Shown here: piece by piece, positions 2,874 to 8,084 of the stretch
Position numbering within the stretch: the first letter of the stretch is position 1
How the letters are laid out: the number at the start of each line of letters is the position of its first letter
Sequence record: PZ445455.1
DNA: 39,451 bases
Reading direction: 5' to 3' (one strand)
From: a phage
Program-made: the position numbers and the translations under genes
The notes under the pieces: generated by a model
Database searches by the model: none
What the model saw: only the letters and a program-made list of their open reading frames with translations
Told to the model about the DNA's origin: nothing

Positions 2874-2910
2874 TTGACTTAAAGTCTAACCTATAGGATA
2901 CTTACAGCCA
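2874..2910 (+). promoter_or_regulatory. Host sigma70 early promoter A1
   Basis: -35 ttgact and -10 gatact with 17-bp spacing; matches T7 A1 as recalled. Confidence 0.8.
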
Positions 2911-2999
2911 TCGAGAGGGACACGGCGAATAACCATCCAATCGATACCGGGGTCAACCGGATAAGTAGACAGCCTGATAAGTCGTATGAAAAACAGGTA

Positions 3000-3037
3000 T
3001 TGACAACATGAAGTAACAAGTAGTAAGATATACAGCG
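3000..3037 (+). promoter_or_regulatory. Host sigma70 early promoter A2
   Basis: -35 ttgaca, -10 taagat; aaaacaggtattgacaacatgaagtaaca as in T7 A2. Confidence 0.75.
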
Positions 3038-3105
3038 TCAACCACTGACACGGTGTCTTCTAGGTGACTTAAGCGCACCACGGCACATAAAGTGAAACAA
3101 AACGG

Positions 3106-3142
3106 TTGACAACATGAAGTAAACACGGTACGATGTACCACA
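3106..3142 (+). promoter_or_regulatory. Host sigma70 early promoter A3
   Basis: -35 ttgaca, -10 tacgat; aaacggttgacaacatgaagtaaacacggtacgatgtacca as in T7 A3. Confidence 0.8.
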
Positions 3143-3293: not shown

Positions 3294-3323
3294 CACTAAC
3301 AACCACACATGAGGTAACACAAG

Positions 3324-3686
3324 ATGGCTATGTCTAACATGACTTATCACAACGTTTTCGATCACGCTTACGAAATGCTGAAAGAAAATATCCGTTATGA
3401 TGACATCCGTGACGCTGATGACCTGCACGACGCAGTGCACATGGCAGCCGATAACGCCGTTCCGCACTATTACAGTGACATTTTCAGTGTAATGGCAAGC
3501 GAGGGCATTGACCTTGAGTTCGAGGATTCTGGTCTGATGCCGGACACCAAGGACGTAATTCGCATCCTGCAAGCTCGCATCTATGAGCAACTCACAATCG
3601 ACCTCTGGGAAGATGCAGAAGACTTACTGAACGAGTATCTTGAGGAAGTCGAGGAAGATGAAGACTACGAAGAGGATGAAGAGTAA
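3324..3686 (+). CDS. ocr: Ocr (gp0.3) DNA-mimic anti-restriction protein
   Basis: 120 aa, highly acidic, near-identical to T7 Ocr; C-terminal acidic tail 3 aa longer. Confidence 0.95.
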
Positions 3687-3841
3687 TGGCTAACAACACC
3701 ACGCAATACGGTCTGACCGCTCAAACTGTACTGTTTTATAGTGACATGGTGCGCTGTGGCTTTAACTGGTCGCTCGCAATGGCACACCTTAAGGAACTGT
3801 ACGAGAACAACAAGGCAATAGCTTTGGAATCTGCTGAGTGA
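3686..3841 (+). CDS. 0.4: gp0.4 (51 aa; cell-division inhibitor in T7)
   Basis: ATG overlaps ocr stop (TAATG); translation [51 protein letters not shown] matches T7 gp0.4. Confidence 0.8.
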   Translation: MANNTTQYGLTAQTVLFYSDMVRCGFNWSLAMAHLKELYENNKAIALESAE

Positions 3842-3844
3842 TAG

Positions 3845-3880
3845 ACTCAAGGTCGCTCAATACGAGTGGCCTTTATGATT
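3845..3880 (+). promoter_or_regulatory. RNase III processing hairpin R0.5
   Basis: gactcaaggtcgctcaatacgagtggcctttatgatt. Confidence 0.6.
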
Positions 3881-3903
3881 ATCATTCTATGAGGGTTAAA
3901 CGC

Positions 3904-4074
3904 ATGACGACTGAAATCTTTATGGCAACCGTTGCAGTATTCGTAGCGATGGGATGGCGTAGCACCGCGTTGGAGCGCTCAAAGTTCCTTAAGCAACGTG
4001 ATGCACTACTCGAGAAGTTGGACGCTGAGGGGCGCGGTATGGAAGCTCTGGAGGCAATAAAGCACTATCGCTAA
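3904..4074 (+). CDS. Small hypothetical membrane-anchored protein occupying the gene 0.5 slot (56 aa); not the T7 gp0.5 sequence
   Basis: RBS gaggg 8 nt upstream; MTTEIFMATVAVFVAMGWRSTALERSKFLKQRDALLEKLDAEGRGMEALEAIKHYR; hydrophobic N-terminus then charged helix; in-frame upstream ATGs at 3838/3889 lack an RBS. Confidence 0.6.
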   Translation: MTTEIFMATVAVFVAMGWRSTALERSKFLKQRDALLEKLDAEGRGMEALEAIKHYR

Positions 4075-4114
4075 TTATCATCACCATCGGAATCATCAAA
4101 GGGGCACTACGCAA
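4075..4114 (+). pseudogene. Remnant of the 3' end of ancestral gene 0.5
   Basis: atcatcaccatcggaatcatcaaaggggcactacgcaaatga matches the end of T7 gene 0.5 (encoding ...IIGIIKGALRK*) but has no start codon. Confidence 0.5.
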
Positions 4115-4252
4115 ATGATGAAGCACTACGTTATGCCAATCCACACGTCCAACGGGGCAACCGTATGTACACCTGACGGGTTCGCAATGAAACAACGAAT
4201 CGAACGCCTTAAGCGTGAACTACGCATCAACCGCAAGATTAACAAAATCTAA
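4115..4252 (+). CDS. 0.6: gp0.6 (45 aa, C-terminally shorter than T7 0.6A)
   Basis: MMKHYVMPIHTSNGATVCTPDGFAMKQRIERLKRELRINRKINKI; matches T7 gp0.6 N-terminal 45 residues. Confidence 0.75.
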   Translation: MMKHYVMPIHTSNGATVCTPDGFAMKQRIERLKRELRINRKINKI

Positions 4253-4282
4253 TCACATTTAATTACTTGGAGAATACATAAA

Positions 4283-5362
4283 GTGAACATCACCGACATC
4301 ATGAACGCTATCGACGCAATCAAAGCACTGCCAATCTGTGAACTTGACAAACGTCAAGGTATGCTTATCGACTTGCTGGTAGAGATGGTCAATAGCGAGA
4401 CATGTGATGGAGAGATTACCGAACTGAATCATGCACTTGAGTATCAAGACTGGTGGACTACCTTGAAGTGTCTCACGACTGACGCAGGTTTCAAGATGCT
4501 CGGCAATGGTCACTTCTCGGCTGCTTATAGTCACCCGCTGCTGCCCAACAGAGTGATTAAGGTGGGCTTTAAGAAAGAGGACTCAGGCGCTGCGTATACC
4601 GCATTCTGCCGCATGTATCAGGGCCGTGCAGGTATCCCTAACGTCTATGATGTACAGCGCCACGCTGGATGTTATACGGTGGTACTCGATGCACTGAATG
4701 ATTGCGAGCGTTTCAACAACGATGAACATTATAAATACGCTGAGATTGCAAGTGACATCATTGACTGCAAATCAGATGCGCACGATGGGTTAACTGGATT
4801 GGATGGCGAGTTCGTCGAGACTTGCAAGTTAATCCGCAAGTTCTTTGAGGGCATCGCTTCGTTCGACATGCACAGCGGGAACATCATGTTCGACGATAAT
4901 GATGTACCATACATTACCGACCCGGTATCATTCTCACAGAAGAAAGACGGTGGCTCGTTCAGCATTGACCCTGAGGAACTCATCAAGGAAGTAGAGGAAG
5001 TAGCACGCCAGAAGGAAATTGACCGCGCTAAGGAACGCAAAGCACGCCATGTGGGGCGCTTAGAGGCACGCAGAATGAAACGCCGTAACCGTAAGGCACG
5101 TAAAGCACACCAAGCGAAGCACGAAAGAATGATTGCTCGGGGGAGTTGGGTTGAACGTCAAGCACGACGTAACCATGAGATAGCTGTAGACGTACTAGGA
5201 AGGACCAATAACGCTATGCTCTGGGTCAATATGTTAGCTACGGACTTTAAGGCACTTGAAGAACGAATCGCGATGAAATGGCGCAACGCTGACCGGATGG
5301 CTATCGCTAACGGTCTTCCGCTCAACATCGATAAGCAACTTTACGCAATGCTAATGGGCTGA
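4283..5362 (+). CDS. 0.7: gp0.7 Ser/Thr protein kinase / host transcription shut-off
   Basis: 359 aa, GTG start with ggag RBS; near-identical to T7 gp0.7. Confidence 0.93.
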
Positions 5363-5432: not shown

Positions 5433-8084
5433 ATGAACACGATTAACATCGCTAAGAACGACTTCTCTGACATCGAACTGGCTGCTATCCCGTTCAATAC
5501 TCTGGCTGACCACTATGGTGAGCGTTTAGCTCGCGAACAGTTGGCCCTTGAGCATGAGTCTTACGAAATGGGTGAAGCACGCTTCCGCAAGATGTTTGAG
5601 CGTCAACTTAAAGCTGGTGAGGTTGCGGATAACGCTGCCGCTAAGCCTCTCATTACTACACTACTCCCTAAGATGATTGCACGCATTAACGATTGGTTTG
5701 AGGAAGTGAAAGCTAAGCGCGGCAAACGCCCGACAGCCTTCCAGTTCCTGCAAGAAATCAAGCCGGAAGCTGTAGCGTACATCACCATTAAGACCACTCT
5801 GGCTTGCCTCACTAGCGTAGACAATACAACCGTTCAGGCTGTAGCGAGTGCAATCGGTCGAGCCATTGAGGATGAGGCGCGCTTCGGTCGTATCCGTGAC
5901 CTTGAAGCGAAGCACTTCAAGAAAAACGTTGAGGAACAGCTCAACAAGCGCGTGGGGCACGTCTACAAGAAAGCATTCATGCAAGTTGTCGAGGCTGACA
6001 TGCTCTCTAAGGGTCTACTAGGTGGCGAGGCGTGGTCTTCGTGGCACAAAGAGGACTCCATTCACGTTGGGGTGCGCTGCATTGAGATGCTCATTGAGTC
6101 AACTGGAATGGTTAGCTTACACCGCCAAAACGCTGGCGTAGTCGGTCAGGACTCTGAGACTATCGAACTCGCACCGGAATACGCTGAGGCTATCGCAACC
6201 CGTGCGGGTGCACTTGCTGGTATCTCTCCGATGTTCCAACCTTGCGTAGTTCCTCCTAAGCCGTGGACTGGCATTACAGGTGGTGGCTATTGGGCTAACG
6301 GTCGTCGTCCTCTGGCGCTGGTGCGTACCCACAGCAAGAAAGCACTGATGCGCTACGAAGATGTTTACATGCCTGAGGTATACAAGGCGATTAACATTGC
6401 ACAAAACACCGCATGGAAAATCAACAAGAAAGTCCTAGCGGTCGCCAACGTGATAACCAAATGGAAGCACTGCCCTGTAGAGGATATACCAGCGATTGAA
6501 CGTGAAGAACTCCCGATGAAACCGGAAGACATCGACACGAATCCGGAGGCTCTCACCGCGTGGAAACGTGCCGCTGCCGCTGTGTACCGTAAGGACAAGG
6601 CTCGAAAGTCTCGCCGTATCAGTCTTGAGTTCATGCTTGAGCAAGCCAACAAGTTCGCTAACCATAAGGCCATCTGGTTCCCTTACAACATGGACTGGCG
6701 CGGTCGCGTTTACGCTGTGTCAATGTTCAACCCGCAAGGTAACGATATGACCAAGGGCCTGCTGACGCTGGCGAAAGGTAAACCAATCGGTAAGGAAGGT
6801 TACTACTGGCTGAAAATCCACGGTGCAAACTGTGCTGGTGTCGATAAGGTTCCGTTCCCTGAGCGCATCAAGTTCATTGAGGAAAACCACGAGAACATCC
6901 TAGCGTGCGCTAAGTCTCCACTGGAGAACACTTGGTGGGCTGAGCAAGATTCTCCGTTCTGCTTCCTTGCGTTCTGCTTTGAGTACGCTGGGGTACAGCA
7001 CCACGGCTTAAGCTACAACTGCTCTCTTCCGCTTGCGTTCGATGGGTCTTGCTCTGGCATTCAGCACTTCTCCGCGATGCTCCGTGATGAGGTAGGTGGT
7101 CGTGCGGTTAACTTGCTGCCTAGTGAAACCGTTCAGGACATCTACGGGATTGTCGCTAAGAAAGTCAACGAGATTCTACAAGCAGATGCAATCAACGGGA
7201 CCGACAACGAAGTGGTTACCGTGACCGATGAGAACACTGGCGAAATCTCTGAGAAAGTCAAGCTGGGCACCAAGGCGCTGGCTGGTCAATGGCTTGCTTA
7301 CGGTGTTACTCGCAGCGTGACTAAGCGTTCAGTCATGACGCTGGCTTACGGGTCCAAAGAGTTCGGCTTTCGTCAACAAGTGCTGGAAGATACCATTCAG
7401 CCAGCTATCGATTCCGGCAAGGGTCTGATGTTCACTCAACCGAATCAGGCTGCTGGATACATGGCTAAACTGATTTGGGAAGCTGTGAGCGTGACGGTGG
7501 TAGCCGCTGTGGAGGCAATGAACTGGCTTAAGTCTGCCGCTAAGCTGCTGGCTGCTGAGGTCAAAGATAGGAAGACTGGAGAGATTCTGCGCAAGCGTTG
7601 CGCTGTACATTGGGTGACTCCTGATTCCTTCCCAGTTTGGCAAGAATACAAGAAGCCAATTCAGACTCGCTTGAACCTGATGTTCCTCGGTCAGTTCCGC
7701 TTACAGCCGACCATTAACACCAACAAAGATAGCGAGATTGACGCACACAAGCAGGAGTCCGGTATAGCACCCAATTATATACACAGTATGGACGCAAACC
7801 ACCTGCGACAAACCGTGGTGTGGGCTCATGAGAAGTATGGCATCGAGTCCTTCGCACTGATTCACGACTCCTTTGGGACAATTCCTGCTGATGCTGCCAA
7901 CCTGTTCAAAGCTGTGCGCGAAACTATGGTTGACACCTATGAGTCCTGTGATGTACTGGCTGACTTCTATGACCAGTTCGCTGACCAGTTGCATGAGTCT
8001 CAATTGGATAAAATGCCAGAACTTCCTGCTAAAGGTAACTTGAACCTCCAAGACATCCTTAAGTCAGACTTCGCGTTTGCGTAA
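5433..8084 (+). CDS. 1: Single-subunit DNA-dependent RNA polymerase (gp1)
   Basis: 883 aa, near-identical to T7 RNAP including specificity loop; matches T7-type promoters in the genome. Confidence 0.98.
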   Translation: MNTINIAKNDFSDIELAAIPFNTLADHYGERLAREQLALEHESYEMGEARFRKMFERQLKAGEVADNAAAKPLITTLLPKMIARINDWFEEVKAKRGKRPTAFQFLQEIKPEAVAYITIKTTLACLTSVDNTTVQAVASAIGRAIEDEARFGRIRDLEAKHFKKNVEEQLNKRVGHVYKKAFMQVVEADMLSKGLLGGEAWSSWHKEDSIHVGVRCIEMLIESTGMVSLHRQNAGVVGQDSETIELAPEYAEAIATRAGALAGISPMFQPCVVPPKPWTGITGGGYWANGRRPLALVRTHSKKALMRYEDVYMPEVYKAINIAQNTAWKINKKVLAVANVITKWKHCPVEDIPAIEREELPMKPEDIDTNPEALTAWKRAAAAVYRKDKARKSRRISLEFMLEQANKFANHKAIWFPYNMDWRGRVYAVSMFNPQGNDMTKGLLTLAKGKPIGKEGYYWLKIHGANCAGVDKVPFPERIKFIEENHENILACAKSPLENTWWAEQDSPFCFLAFCFEYAGVQHHGLSYNCSLPLAFDGSCSGIQHFSAMLRDEVGGRAVNLLPSETVQDIYGIVAKKVNEILQADAINGTDNEVVTVTDENTGEISEKVKLGTKALAGQWLAYGVTRSVTKRSVMTLAYGSKEFGFRQQVLEDTIQPAIDSGKGLMFTQPNQAAGYMAKLIWEAVSVTVVAAVEAMNWLKSAAKLLAAEVKDRKTGEILRKRCAVHWVTPDSFPVWQEYKKPIQTRLNLMFLGQFRLQPTINTNKDSEIDAHKQESGIAPNYIHSMDANHLRQTVVWAHEKYGIESFALIHDSFGTIPADAANLFKAVRETMVDTYESCDVLADFYDQFADQLHESQLDKMPELPAKGNLNLQDILKSDFAFA

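Follow-up and report, generated by a model that had tools for sequence, protein, structure and literature searches.

A conserved early gene of T7-like phages at a mosaic junction with a gene 0.5 remnant in Escherichia phage JacobBurckhardt

The early region of Escherichia phage JacobBurckhardt (Bas65 of the BASEL collection) raises the question of which gene stands between the R0.5 RNase III hairpin and gene 0.6A, and how the 3′ end of a T7 gene 0.5 came to lie behind it. A sequence-only reading of the locus had proposed that an unrelated, newly acquired gene for a small membrane protein had displaced gene 0.5 at this place, and had named it a plausible candidate for a host-interaction or anti-defence function. 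The window considered here is the whole stretch of DNA analysed (39,451 nucleotides; record PZ445455.1). The phage is T7-like; it has been described as a close relative of T7, the two have a gp1.2 allele in common, and it forms plaques poorly on E. coli B REL606 (PMC8594841). The gene order in its early region is that of T7, with ocr at 3324-3686 (120 aa), a gene 0.4 homologue at 3686-3841 (51 aa; near-identical to T7 gp0.4, with a PHROG 7202 match), the open reading frame in question, here called gene X, at 3904-4074, a T7-type gene 0.6A at 4115-4252, the gene 0.7 protein kinase, recognized by its annotated homologues, at 4283-5362, and the RNA polymerase gene at 5433-8084. Gene 0.4 is the upstream neighbour of X and gene 0.7 the downstream neighbour of the locus, and the genes, signals, and remnants described from one to the other are all on the plus strand. 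The record is circularly permuted and opens with the gene for the large terminase subunit (1-1761). Three strong sigma-70-like sites at 2874-3134 are the counterparts of the A1-A3 early promoters, which places the physical left end of the genome at roughly 2.0-2.8 kb. Ocr is 120 aa long here compared to 117 aa in T7 and differs in its acidic C-terminal tail, the length of which is highly variable across relatives (the Ocr of KKE5P reaches up to 134 aa).

The reading frame of X (3904-4074, 56 aa) was confirmed, with exactly the translation that had been quoted for it. Its ATG lies 8 nt downstream of a canonical Shine-Dalgarno sequence, GAGGG (3891-3895), which is the proper spacing. The annotated form of the protein, found in a protein search as 'hypothetical protein bas65_0009' at 100% identity, is 78 aa long; this deposited model starts at GTG 3838 and overlaps the stop codon of gene 0.4, and bas64_0010 of phage JeanTinguely is modelled likewise. 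We rejected the GTG-initiated product because its extension, 'MIDSRSL..GLYDYH', results from a frame that stays open across the RNase III hairpin and recurs 5′ of unrelated genes in T7, SH2, and KKE5P. ATG 3904 is almost certainly the true start of X, and the JeanTinguely gene model almost certainly needs a like correction. As to the ribosome-binding site, the sequence-only reading took GAGGG for a resident signal of gene 0.5 that the new gene had reused. The comparison with relatives does not support this point: the leader ATCATTCTATGAGGxTTAAACGCATG is common to all X-bearing Teseptimaviruses and unlike the leader of T7 gene 0.5 (ATCACTTTACTTATGAGGGAGTAATG), so the ribosome-binding site belongs to the X cassette. 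Within that leader, the Shine-Dalgarno sequence reads GAGGG in JacobBurckhardt, as in T7, and GAGGA in the other phages that carry X. A sigma-70 scan detected no promoter-like site within X, so the minor promoter B, which lies inside gene 0.5 in T7, has no counterpart here.

The position of X, in contrast to the origin of its leader, is as originally described. The sequence and the predicted fold of the hairpin place X directly after an R0.5-type RNase III hairpin (about 3836-3887; −25.1 kcal/mol, z = −2.8), which corresponds to the annotated RNase III site R0.5 of T3 and forms the conserved left boundary of the cassette slot. X is the first gene 3′ of this hairpin, as gp0.5 is in T7, although position alone is no proof of membership. 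In sequence the two products are unrelated, again in agreement with the original proposal: BLASTP of X against T7 gp0.5 returned no alignment even at E ≤ 100, the two proteins fall into different PHROGs (25811 and 16572, respectively), and X does not match PHROG 16572. By tblastn, the X family was found in 48 of 50,697 phage records, and gp0.5-type genes occur in 78 phage records. No accession was shared between the records listed for each (40 of the 48 with X and 60 of the 78 with gp0.5), which is consistent with two alternative occupants of one position; X and gp0.5 behave as alternative cassettes of a single slot. Four records (OP380607, MT681669, OM630586, and ON568193) match only residues 19-47 of T7 gp0.5, at 72-90% identity, suggesting that other T7-like genomes hold additional N-terminal variants of gene 0.5 or partial copies of it.

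The hairpin itself, ending in GGCCTTTATGATTATCA, stands in related phages before cassettes of the 0.45 type, of gene 0.5, and of X, each cassette having its own leader, and it looks like a portable recombination boundary for the shuffling of class I cassettes. Two near-identical copies of the hairpin are found in Bas103 (L005, at 559 and 865), KKE5P (L010, at 680 and 975), and YpYeO9 (L011, at 674 and 991), and each copy in these three phages stands before one small-gene cassette.

The proposal that X is a newly acquired gene did not survive the wider comparison. The profile search with the 56-aa protein, a step that the sequence-only reading had recommended, places X in PHROG 25811 (E = 7.1e-10; residues 5-54 against profile positions 3-51 of 52), and the T3-like homologue matches the same PHROG at E = 1.6e-39. 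X is thus a member of a family that has already been annotated, with copies in five other Teseptimaviruses, namely SYGE1, JeanTinguely/Bas64, Bas103, Bas104, and JB01, where it is 86-93% identical and sits in the same slot. The remaining 43 of the 48 records show less than 60% identity (about 40-46% among the matches listed) and belong to T3-like or other Studiervirinae, with hosts among Klebsiella, Citrobacter, Salmonella, Shigella, Serratia, Pantoea, Erwinia, and Yersinia. When 1.84 billion representative proteins were searched with a profile of 19 members, 11 matched; nine of these are proteins of 50-66 aa with a like design, and we regard the remaining two, which are long and repetitive, as spurious. 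In the alignment, members of the family are 50-59 aa long and share a hydrophobic N-terminal helix with GW at its end, a run of basic residues, and the motif QRDALLxxLDxEGRGxEALE. In all cases examined (six divergent clusters and the close relatives, in T7-like genomes), the gene is flanked by ocr, a SAM lyase, or gene 0.4 and, at its other end, by the 0.7 kinase, and X lies directly 3′ of a copy of the R0.5 hairpin in the Teseptimavirus, PGX1, and L012 copies.

X of JacobBurckhardt shares the profile match, the length and architecture, and the position between ocr/SAM lyase/0.4 and the 0.7 kinase with the other members of PHROG 25811, among them Citrobacter phage SH2 gp3, JeanTinguely bas64_0010, and an unannotated ORF of Salmonella phage phiSG-JL2, all of which resemble it in HMM match, length, architecture, and early position. 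It differs from them in the lineage-specific residues E4, M46, and H54, and it is the only copy of the family found with a gene 0.5 remnant and a T7-type 0.6A downstream. On these sequence comparisons, we assign X to a conserved, uncharacterised early-gene family that is limited to T7/T3-like phages. In the literature, bas65_0009, bas64_0010, and phrog_25811 are mentioned in no paper.

Since the gene is so short, we considered whether X could be an open frame in spacer DNA that was picked up by gene callers and has no function. PHROG 25811 is listed as function unknown, and among close alleles the ratio of non-synonymous to synonymous change is not clearly below 1: Nei-Gojobori counts for eight close alleles gave dN/dS values of 0.15-3.3 on 0.5-13 substitutions, which are noisy and too few to inform, so that purifying selection on X is not demonstrated by them. 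Such a view is nevertheless extremely improbable. The length of 50-59 aa, the N-terminal hydrophobic helix, and the LDxEGRGxEA motif are kept down to about 30-40% identity across at least nine 50%-identity clusters, the Shine-Dalgarno sequence is canonical and properly spaced, and the next gene is often coupled to X through overlapping start and stop codons. The case for X as a coding gene rests on the deep conservation of its length, hydrophobic N terminus, and motif. Compared to its closest alleles (SYGE1, Bas103, and Bas104), X shows 5.5-7 non-synonymous and 0.5-1 synonymous differences (E4, L39, M46, and H54), counts that are too small for calling positive selection or relaxation.

The DNA behind X contains, as had been proposed, a 3′ piece of T7 gene 0.5. 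Positions 4079-4118 agree at 38 of 40 positions with the last 40 nt of the T7 gene, that is, its last ~12 codons and the TGA, which overlaps the ATG of gene 0.6. The remnant had initially been placed at 4075-4114; its existence stands, and the shift of about 4 nt at either end makes no difference. Homology to T7 breaks off at 3884 and is found again at 4079-4248, with 96.5% identity over 170 nt (E = 2e-78), and because the 38/40 match lies inside this block and is contiguous with 0.6A, it represents homologous DNA and no chance match. Translation of the remnant was rejected, since its frame (ending in ALSLIIITIGIIKGALRK before the stop) offers no start codon (ATG, GTG, or TTG) downstream of the preceding TGA and corresponds to no listed ORF.

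Why an untranslatable fragment should be kept may be explained by the signal that it contains. The sequence AGGGG at 4100-4104, the probable Shine-Dalgarno sequence of 0.6A as read from the sequence, lies within the remnant, 10 nt before the first of two 0.6A ATGs (4115) and 13 nt before the second (4118). In T7, the same stretch is the ribosome-binding region of gene 0.6, embedded in the end of gene 0.5. The presence of this site in the fragment would explain why the remnant was retained, and an exchange that imported a working 0.6A would tend to carry the 0.5 tail along with it. The 0.6A gene itself (4115-4252; PHROG 8393, E = 1.7e-29) is of the short form, encoding 45 aa that end in INRKINKI, and does not have the T7-specific C-terminal extension and the 0.6B frameshift region. 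A short 0.6A is also present in PGX1, KKE5P, and YpYeO9, and the long 0.6A/0.6B arrangement was seen in none of these three.

To locate the borders of the T7-type DNA, we aligned the locus to T7-group genomes, another step recommended at the outset, and both breakpoints were mapped. Homology of the JeanTinguely type extends over 3301-4084 and from 4265 onward, and homology to T7 over 3308-3884, 4079-4248, and from 4284 onward. The seven close relatives examined all have a 65-aa gene of the T3 gene 0.6 type (PHROG 2385) that overlaps the 3′ end of X and has its GTG start within X codons 53-54. The seven relatives read ATTATCATCAC and then, past the junction, TGGTTACGC into the 65-aa gene, where JacobBurckhardt has CATCGGAATC into the 0.5 tail; the window is identical to the relatives up to 4084 and then continues with CATCGGAATCATCAAAGG, which is the tail of T7 gene 0.5. 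Alignment of the 3′ ends of X shows that about eight codons from the start of the T3-0.6-type gene survive here as a vestige at 4062-4084. Its GTG start has been destroyed (TGC to CAC), and residue 54 of X is altered too. The JeanTinguely-type and T7-type ranges have six bases in common, CATCA(C/T) at 4079-4084, which points to a left crossover through 5-6 nt of microhomology.

On the right-hand side, the end of 0.6A reads TAATCAC, as JeanTinguely and SYGE1 do after the 65-aa gene, whereas PGX1, KKE5P, and YpYeO9, in which a short 0.6A lies next to 0.7, have TAACTT at that position. The right junction and the spacer between 0.6A and 0.7 (4250-4282) are thus of the JeanTinguely/SYGE1 type after the TAA, and with JeanTinguely-type sequence on both sides the T7-type block at 4079-4252 forms an island of about 170 nt. 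The spacer also contains, at 4250-4270, a small imperfect duplication (TAATCACATT and TAATTAC) that JeanTinguely and SYGE1 do not have and that the right-hand crossover may have left behind.

We propose that the ancestor of this phage would have carried X together with the overlapping T3-0.6-type gene, and that a T7-type segment (4079-4252), consisting of the 0.5 tail and the short 0.6A, would have replaced the latter from about its eighth codon to its stop. Two crossovers in all would be required, one in the CATCA microhomology on the left and one at the TAA stop on the right, and the 0.5 fragment is most likely donor DNA that arrived with 0.6A. The gene displaced at this locus is more likely the T3-0.6-type gene than gene 0.5, given that the former overlaps X in all close relatives. 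While the breakpoints are seen in the alignments, it is from the distribution of the flanking sequence types that we infer the direction of the replacement, which was probably opposite to the one suggested by the sequence-only reading.

According to that original scenario, an incoming X overwrote gene 0.5, from its ribosome-binding site to about 12 codons before its stop, in an ancestor with the T7-type 0.5-0.6A arrangement. Such an event would leave the remnant and 0.6A as contiguous T7-type DNA, as is found; JacobBurckhardt is a close relative of T7 that shares its gp1.2 allele (PMC8594841), the R0.5 hairpin would offer a ready left crossover site, and GAGGG, as in T7, replaces the GAGGA of other X-bearers. 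However, the JeanTinguely/SYGE1-type spacer after 0.6A would demand at least one extra crossover, X is accompanied by about eight T3-0.6-type codons whose start codon has since been mutated, and the leader 5′ of GAGGG is of the X type. We consider this order of events unlikely, although worth keeping in mind. The identity of the flanks (ocr, 0.4, and 0.7) is 88-94% to every candidate parent and does not discriminate between the two directions, and a T7-type recipient with additional crossovers is possible. The exact 26-mer spanning the junction was absent from IMG/VR and a 24-mer was absent from JGI metagenome contigs, and among phage records none covers more than 68% of the segment 3686-4300. 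The junction appears to be unique to this phage so far.

Replacement of the T3-0.6-type gene by a T7-type patch, the reading that we prefer, separates X from its usual overlapping downstream partner: of the T3 gene 0.6 family (PHROG 2385) only the ~8 codons at 4062-4084 survive, the gene itself is absent, and a T7-type 0.6A is in its place. If X worked only as a membrane module together with the T3-0.6-type protein, the copy in JacobBurckhardt would be an orphaned, decaying half of that module. The overlap, and with it probable translational coupling, is found in most carriers, and the lineage-specific non-synonymous changes in X (5.5-7 compared to 0.5-1 synonymous changes against the closest relatives) could be seen in the same light, but these counts are too small to show decay. 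Several other phages also speak against such a dependence. X is intact without the partner in PGX1, where the next gene is a T7-type 0.6, and in L016 and L017, where it is a PF26851 gene (also given as T7-type 0.6); L012 and L018 have an intact X and no small gene before the kinase; and T3 carries the 65-aa gene without X. We therefore judge an obligate pairing very unlikely, and the occurrence of intact X beside other genes or alone indicates, at the level of sequence, that X is independent of the T3-0.6-type partner. L016 and L017, which derive from metagenomic T7-like phage, also encode a SAM lyase at the 0.3 position. A 69-aa ORF that matches ocr (PF08684) lies between their 0.6 and kinase genes (1384-1593 in L016 and 1130-1339 in L017), a possible double anti-restriction arrangement.

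The description of the X product as membrane-anchored in appearance was supported by its hydropathy and by structure prediction. Residues 1-18 have a mean Kyte-Doolittle hydropathy of about +1.75, and residues 19-35 contain five K/R compared to two D/E. The AF2 model obtained with the family alignment has helices at residues 3-18, 22-41, and 45-55, at moderate confidence (pLDDT 67.5). With about 16 residues, the hydrophobic stretch of this allele is short, and helix 3-18 has a pLDDT of about 66. By the positive-inside rule, a hydrophobic helix followed by this excess of basic residues predicts an anchor with the N terminus out and the C terminus in, followed by a cytoplasmic helical hairpin. 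A cleavable signal peptide is unlikely, since X has neither a basic n-region nor an AXA-like site. Searches for a known domain gave only a sub-threshold match to DUF3287 in Pfam (E = 0.054) and no match in NCBIfam. A profile search of the PDB aligned residues 35-54 with a designed TPR helix pair at a marginal E = 0.004, with no stretch passing alone, which we take as a generic helix-turn-helix resemblance, and Foldseek found no match to the AF2 model in BFVD at E ≤ 0.001.

The position of X suggests when it would act. X comes first behind the R0.5 processing site in a pre-early operon that the host polymerase transcribes, and it has a good Shine-Dalgarno sequence; its product therefore probably appears in the opening minutes of infection, translated from the first cistron of an mRNA that would start at the R0.5 RNase III site. 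The protein would then sit in the inner membrane, N terminus out and C terminus in, through an anchor at about residues 3-18, and its ~37-aa cytoplasmic helix-turn-helix hairpin, which carries QRDALLxxLDxEGRGxEALE, would be presented by the anchor to a protein on the cytoplasmic side of the membrane. The neighbours of X are Ocr, gp0.4, gp0.6, and the gp0.7 kinase, all known host-takeover factors, and several uncharacterised pre-early genes, X among them, adjoin these. T7 gp0.4 is an inhibitor of FtsZ and gp0.6 an inhibitor of MreB (PMC5624674); like X, these class I proteins are small (45-56 aa), pre-early, and encoded in the same operon, and they are non-essential, as X probably is (PMC5624674). 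Unlike the predicted product of X, they are soluble, and they have no homology to it; the analogy is drawn from context only. By this analogy, X is most likely a dispensable host-takeover or anti-defence factor acting at the cytoplasmic face of the membrane. Taken jointly, we hold it to be quite likely that X is a family member in the R0.5 slot, that a T7-type patch replaced the T3-0.6-type gene behind it, and that X is a membrane-anchored host-takeover or anti-defence factor.

Finally, we asked how far the likeness between X and gp0.5 goes. T7 gp0.5 (PHROG 16572), which has been described as uncharacterised, resembles X in occupying the slot after R0.5, in being the first cistron of the early mRNA, and in encoding a small hydrophobic or membrane-associated protein (PMC12798971). 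The two differ in design: gp0.5 has 47 aa, is glycine-rich, and is almost wholly hydrophobic, whereas X combines one N-terminal hydrophobic helix with a charged helical hairpin. A speculative view, which we put forward as doubtful, is that X and gp0.5 are interchangeable alleles of one functional slot, both being membrane-targeted pre-early effectors that disable a target associated with the host inner membrane. Such a target could be an abortive-infection or exclusion system bound to the membrane, or could belong to the divisome or elongasome.

These results indicate that the finding at this locus is real but routine, a catalogued and previously annotated T7-group gene at a mosaic junction, and that ordinary mosaic recombination produced the 0.5 remnant as a side effect. 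Their practical yield is the correction of the gene-model starts of bas65_0009 and bas64_0010. The locus illustrates how class I genes are shuffled in T7-like phages, with R0.5 hairpins bounding the cassettes (0.45-type, 0.5, and X) and very short microhomologies able to join them. The interest that remains lies in the function of the X/gp0.5 slot, and the pair, being mutually exclusive in the records listed, is a reasonable subject for study in the tractable BASEL phages. If the two were indeed alleles of one slot, the X family would represent a new class of membrane-tethered helical-hairpin proteins for host takeover or anti-defence, and would offer a handle on the role of T7 gp0.5.
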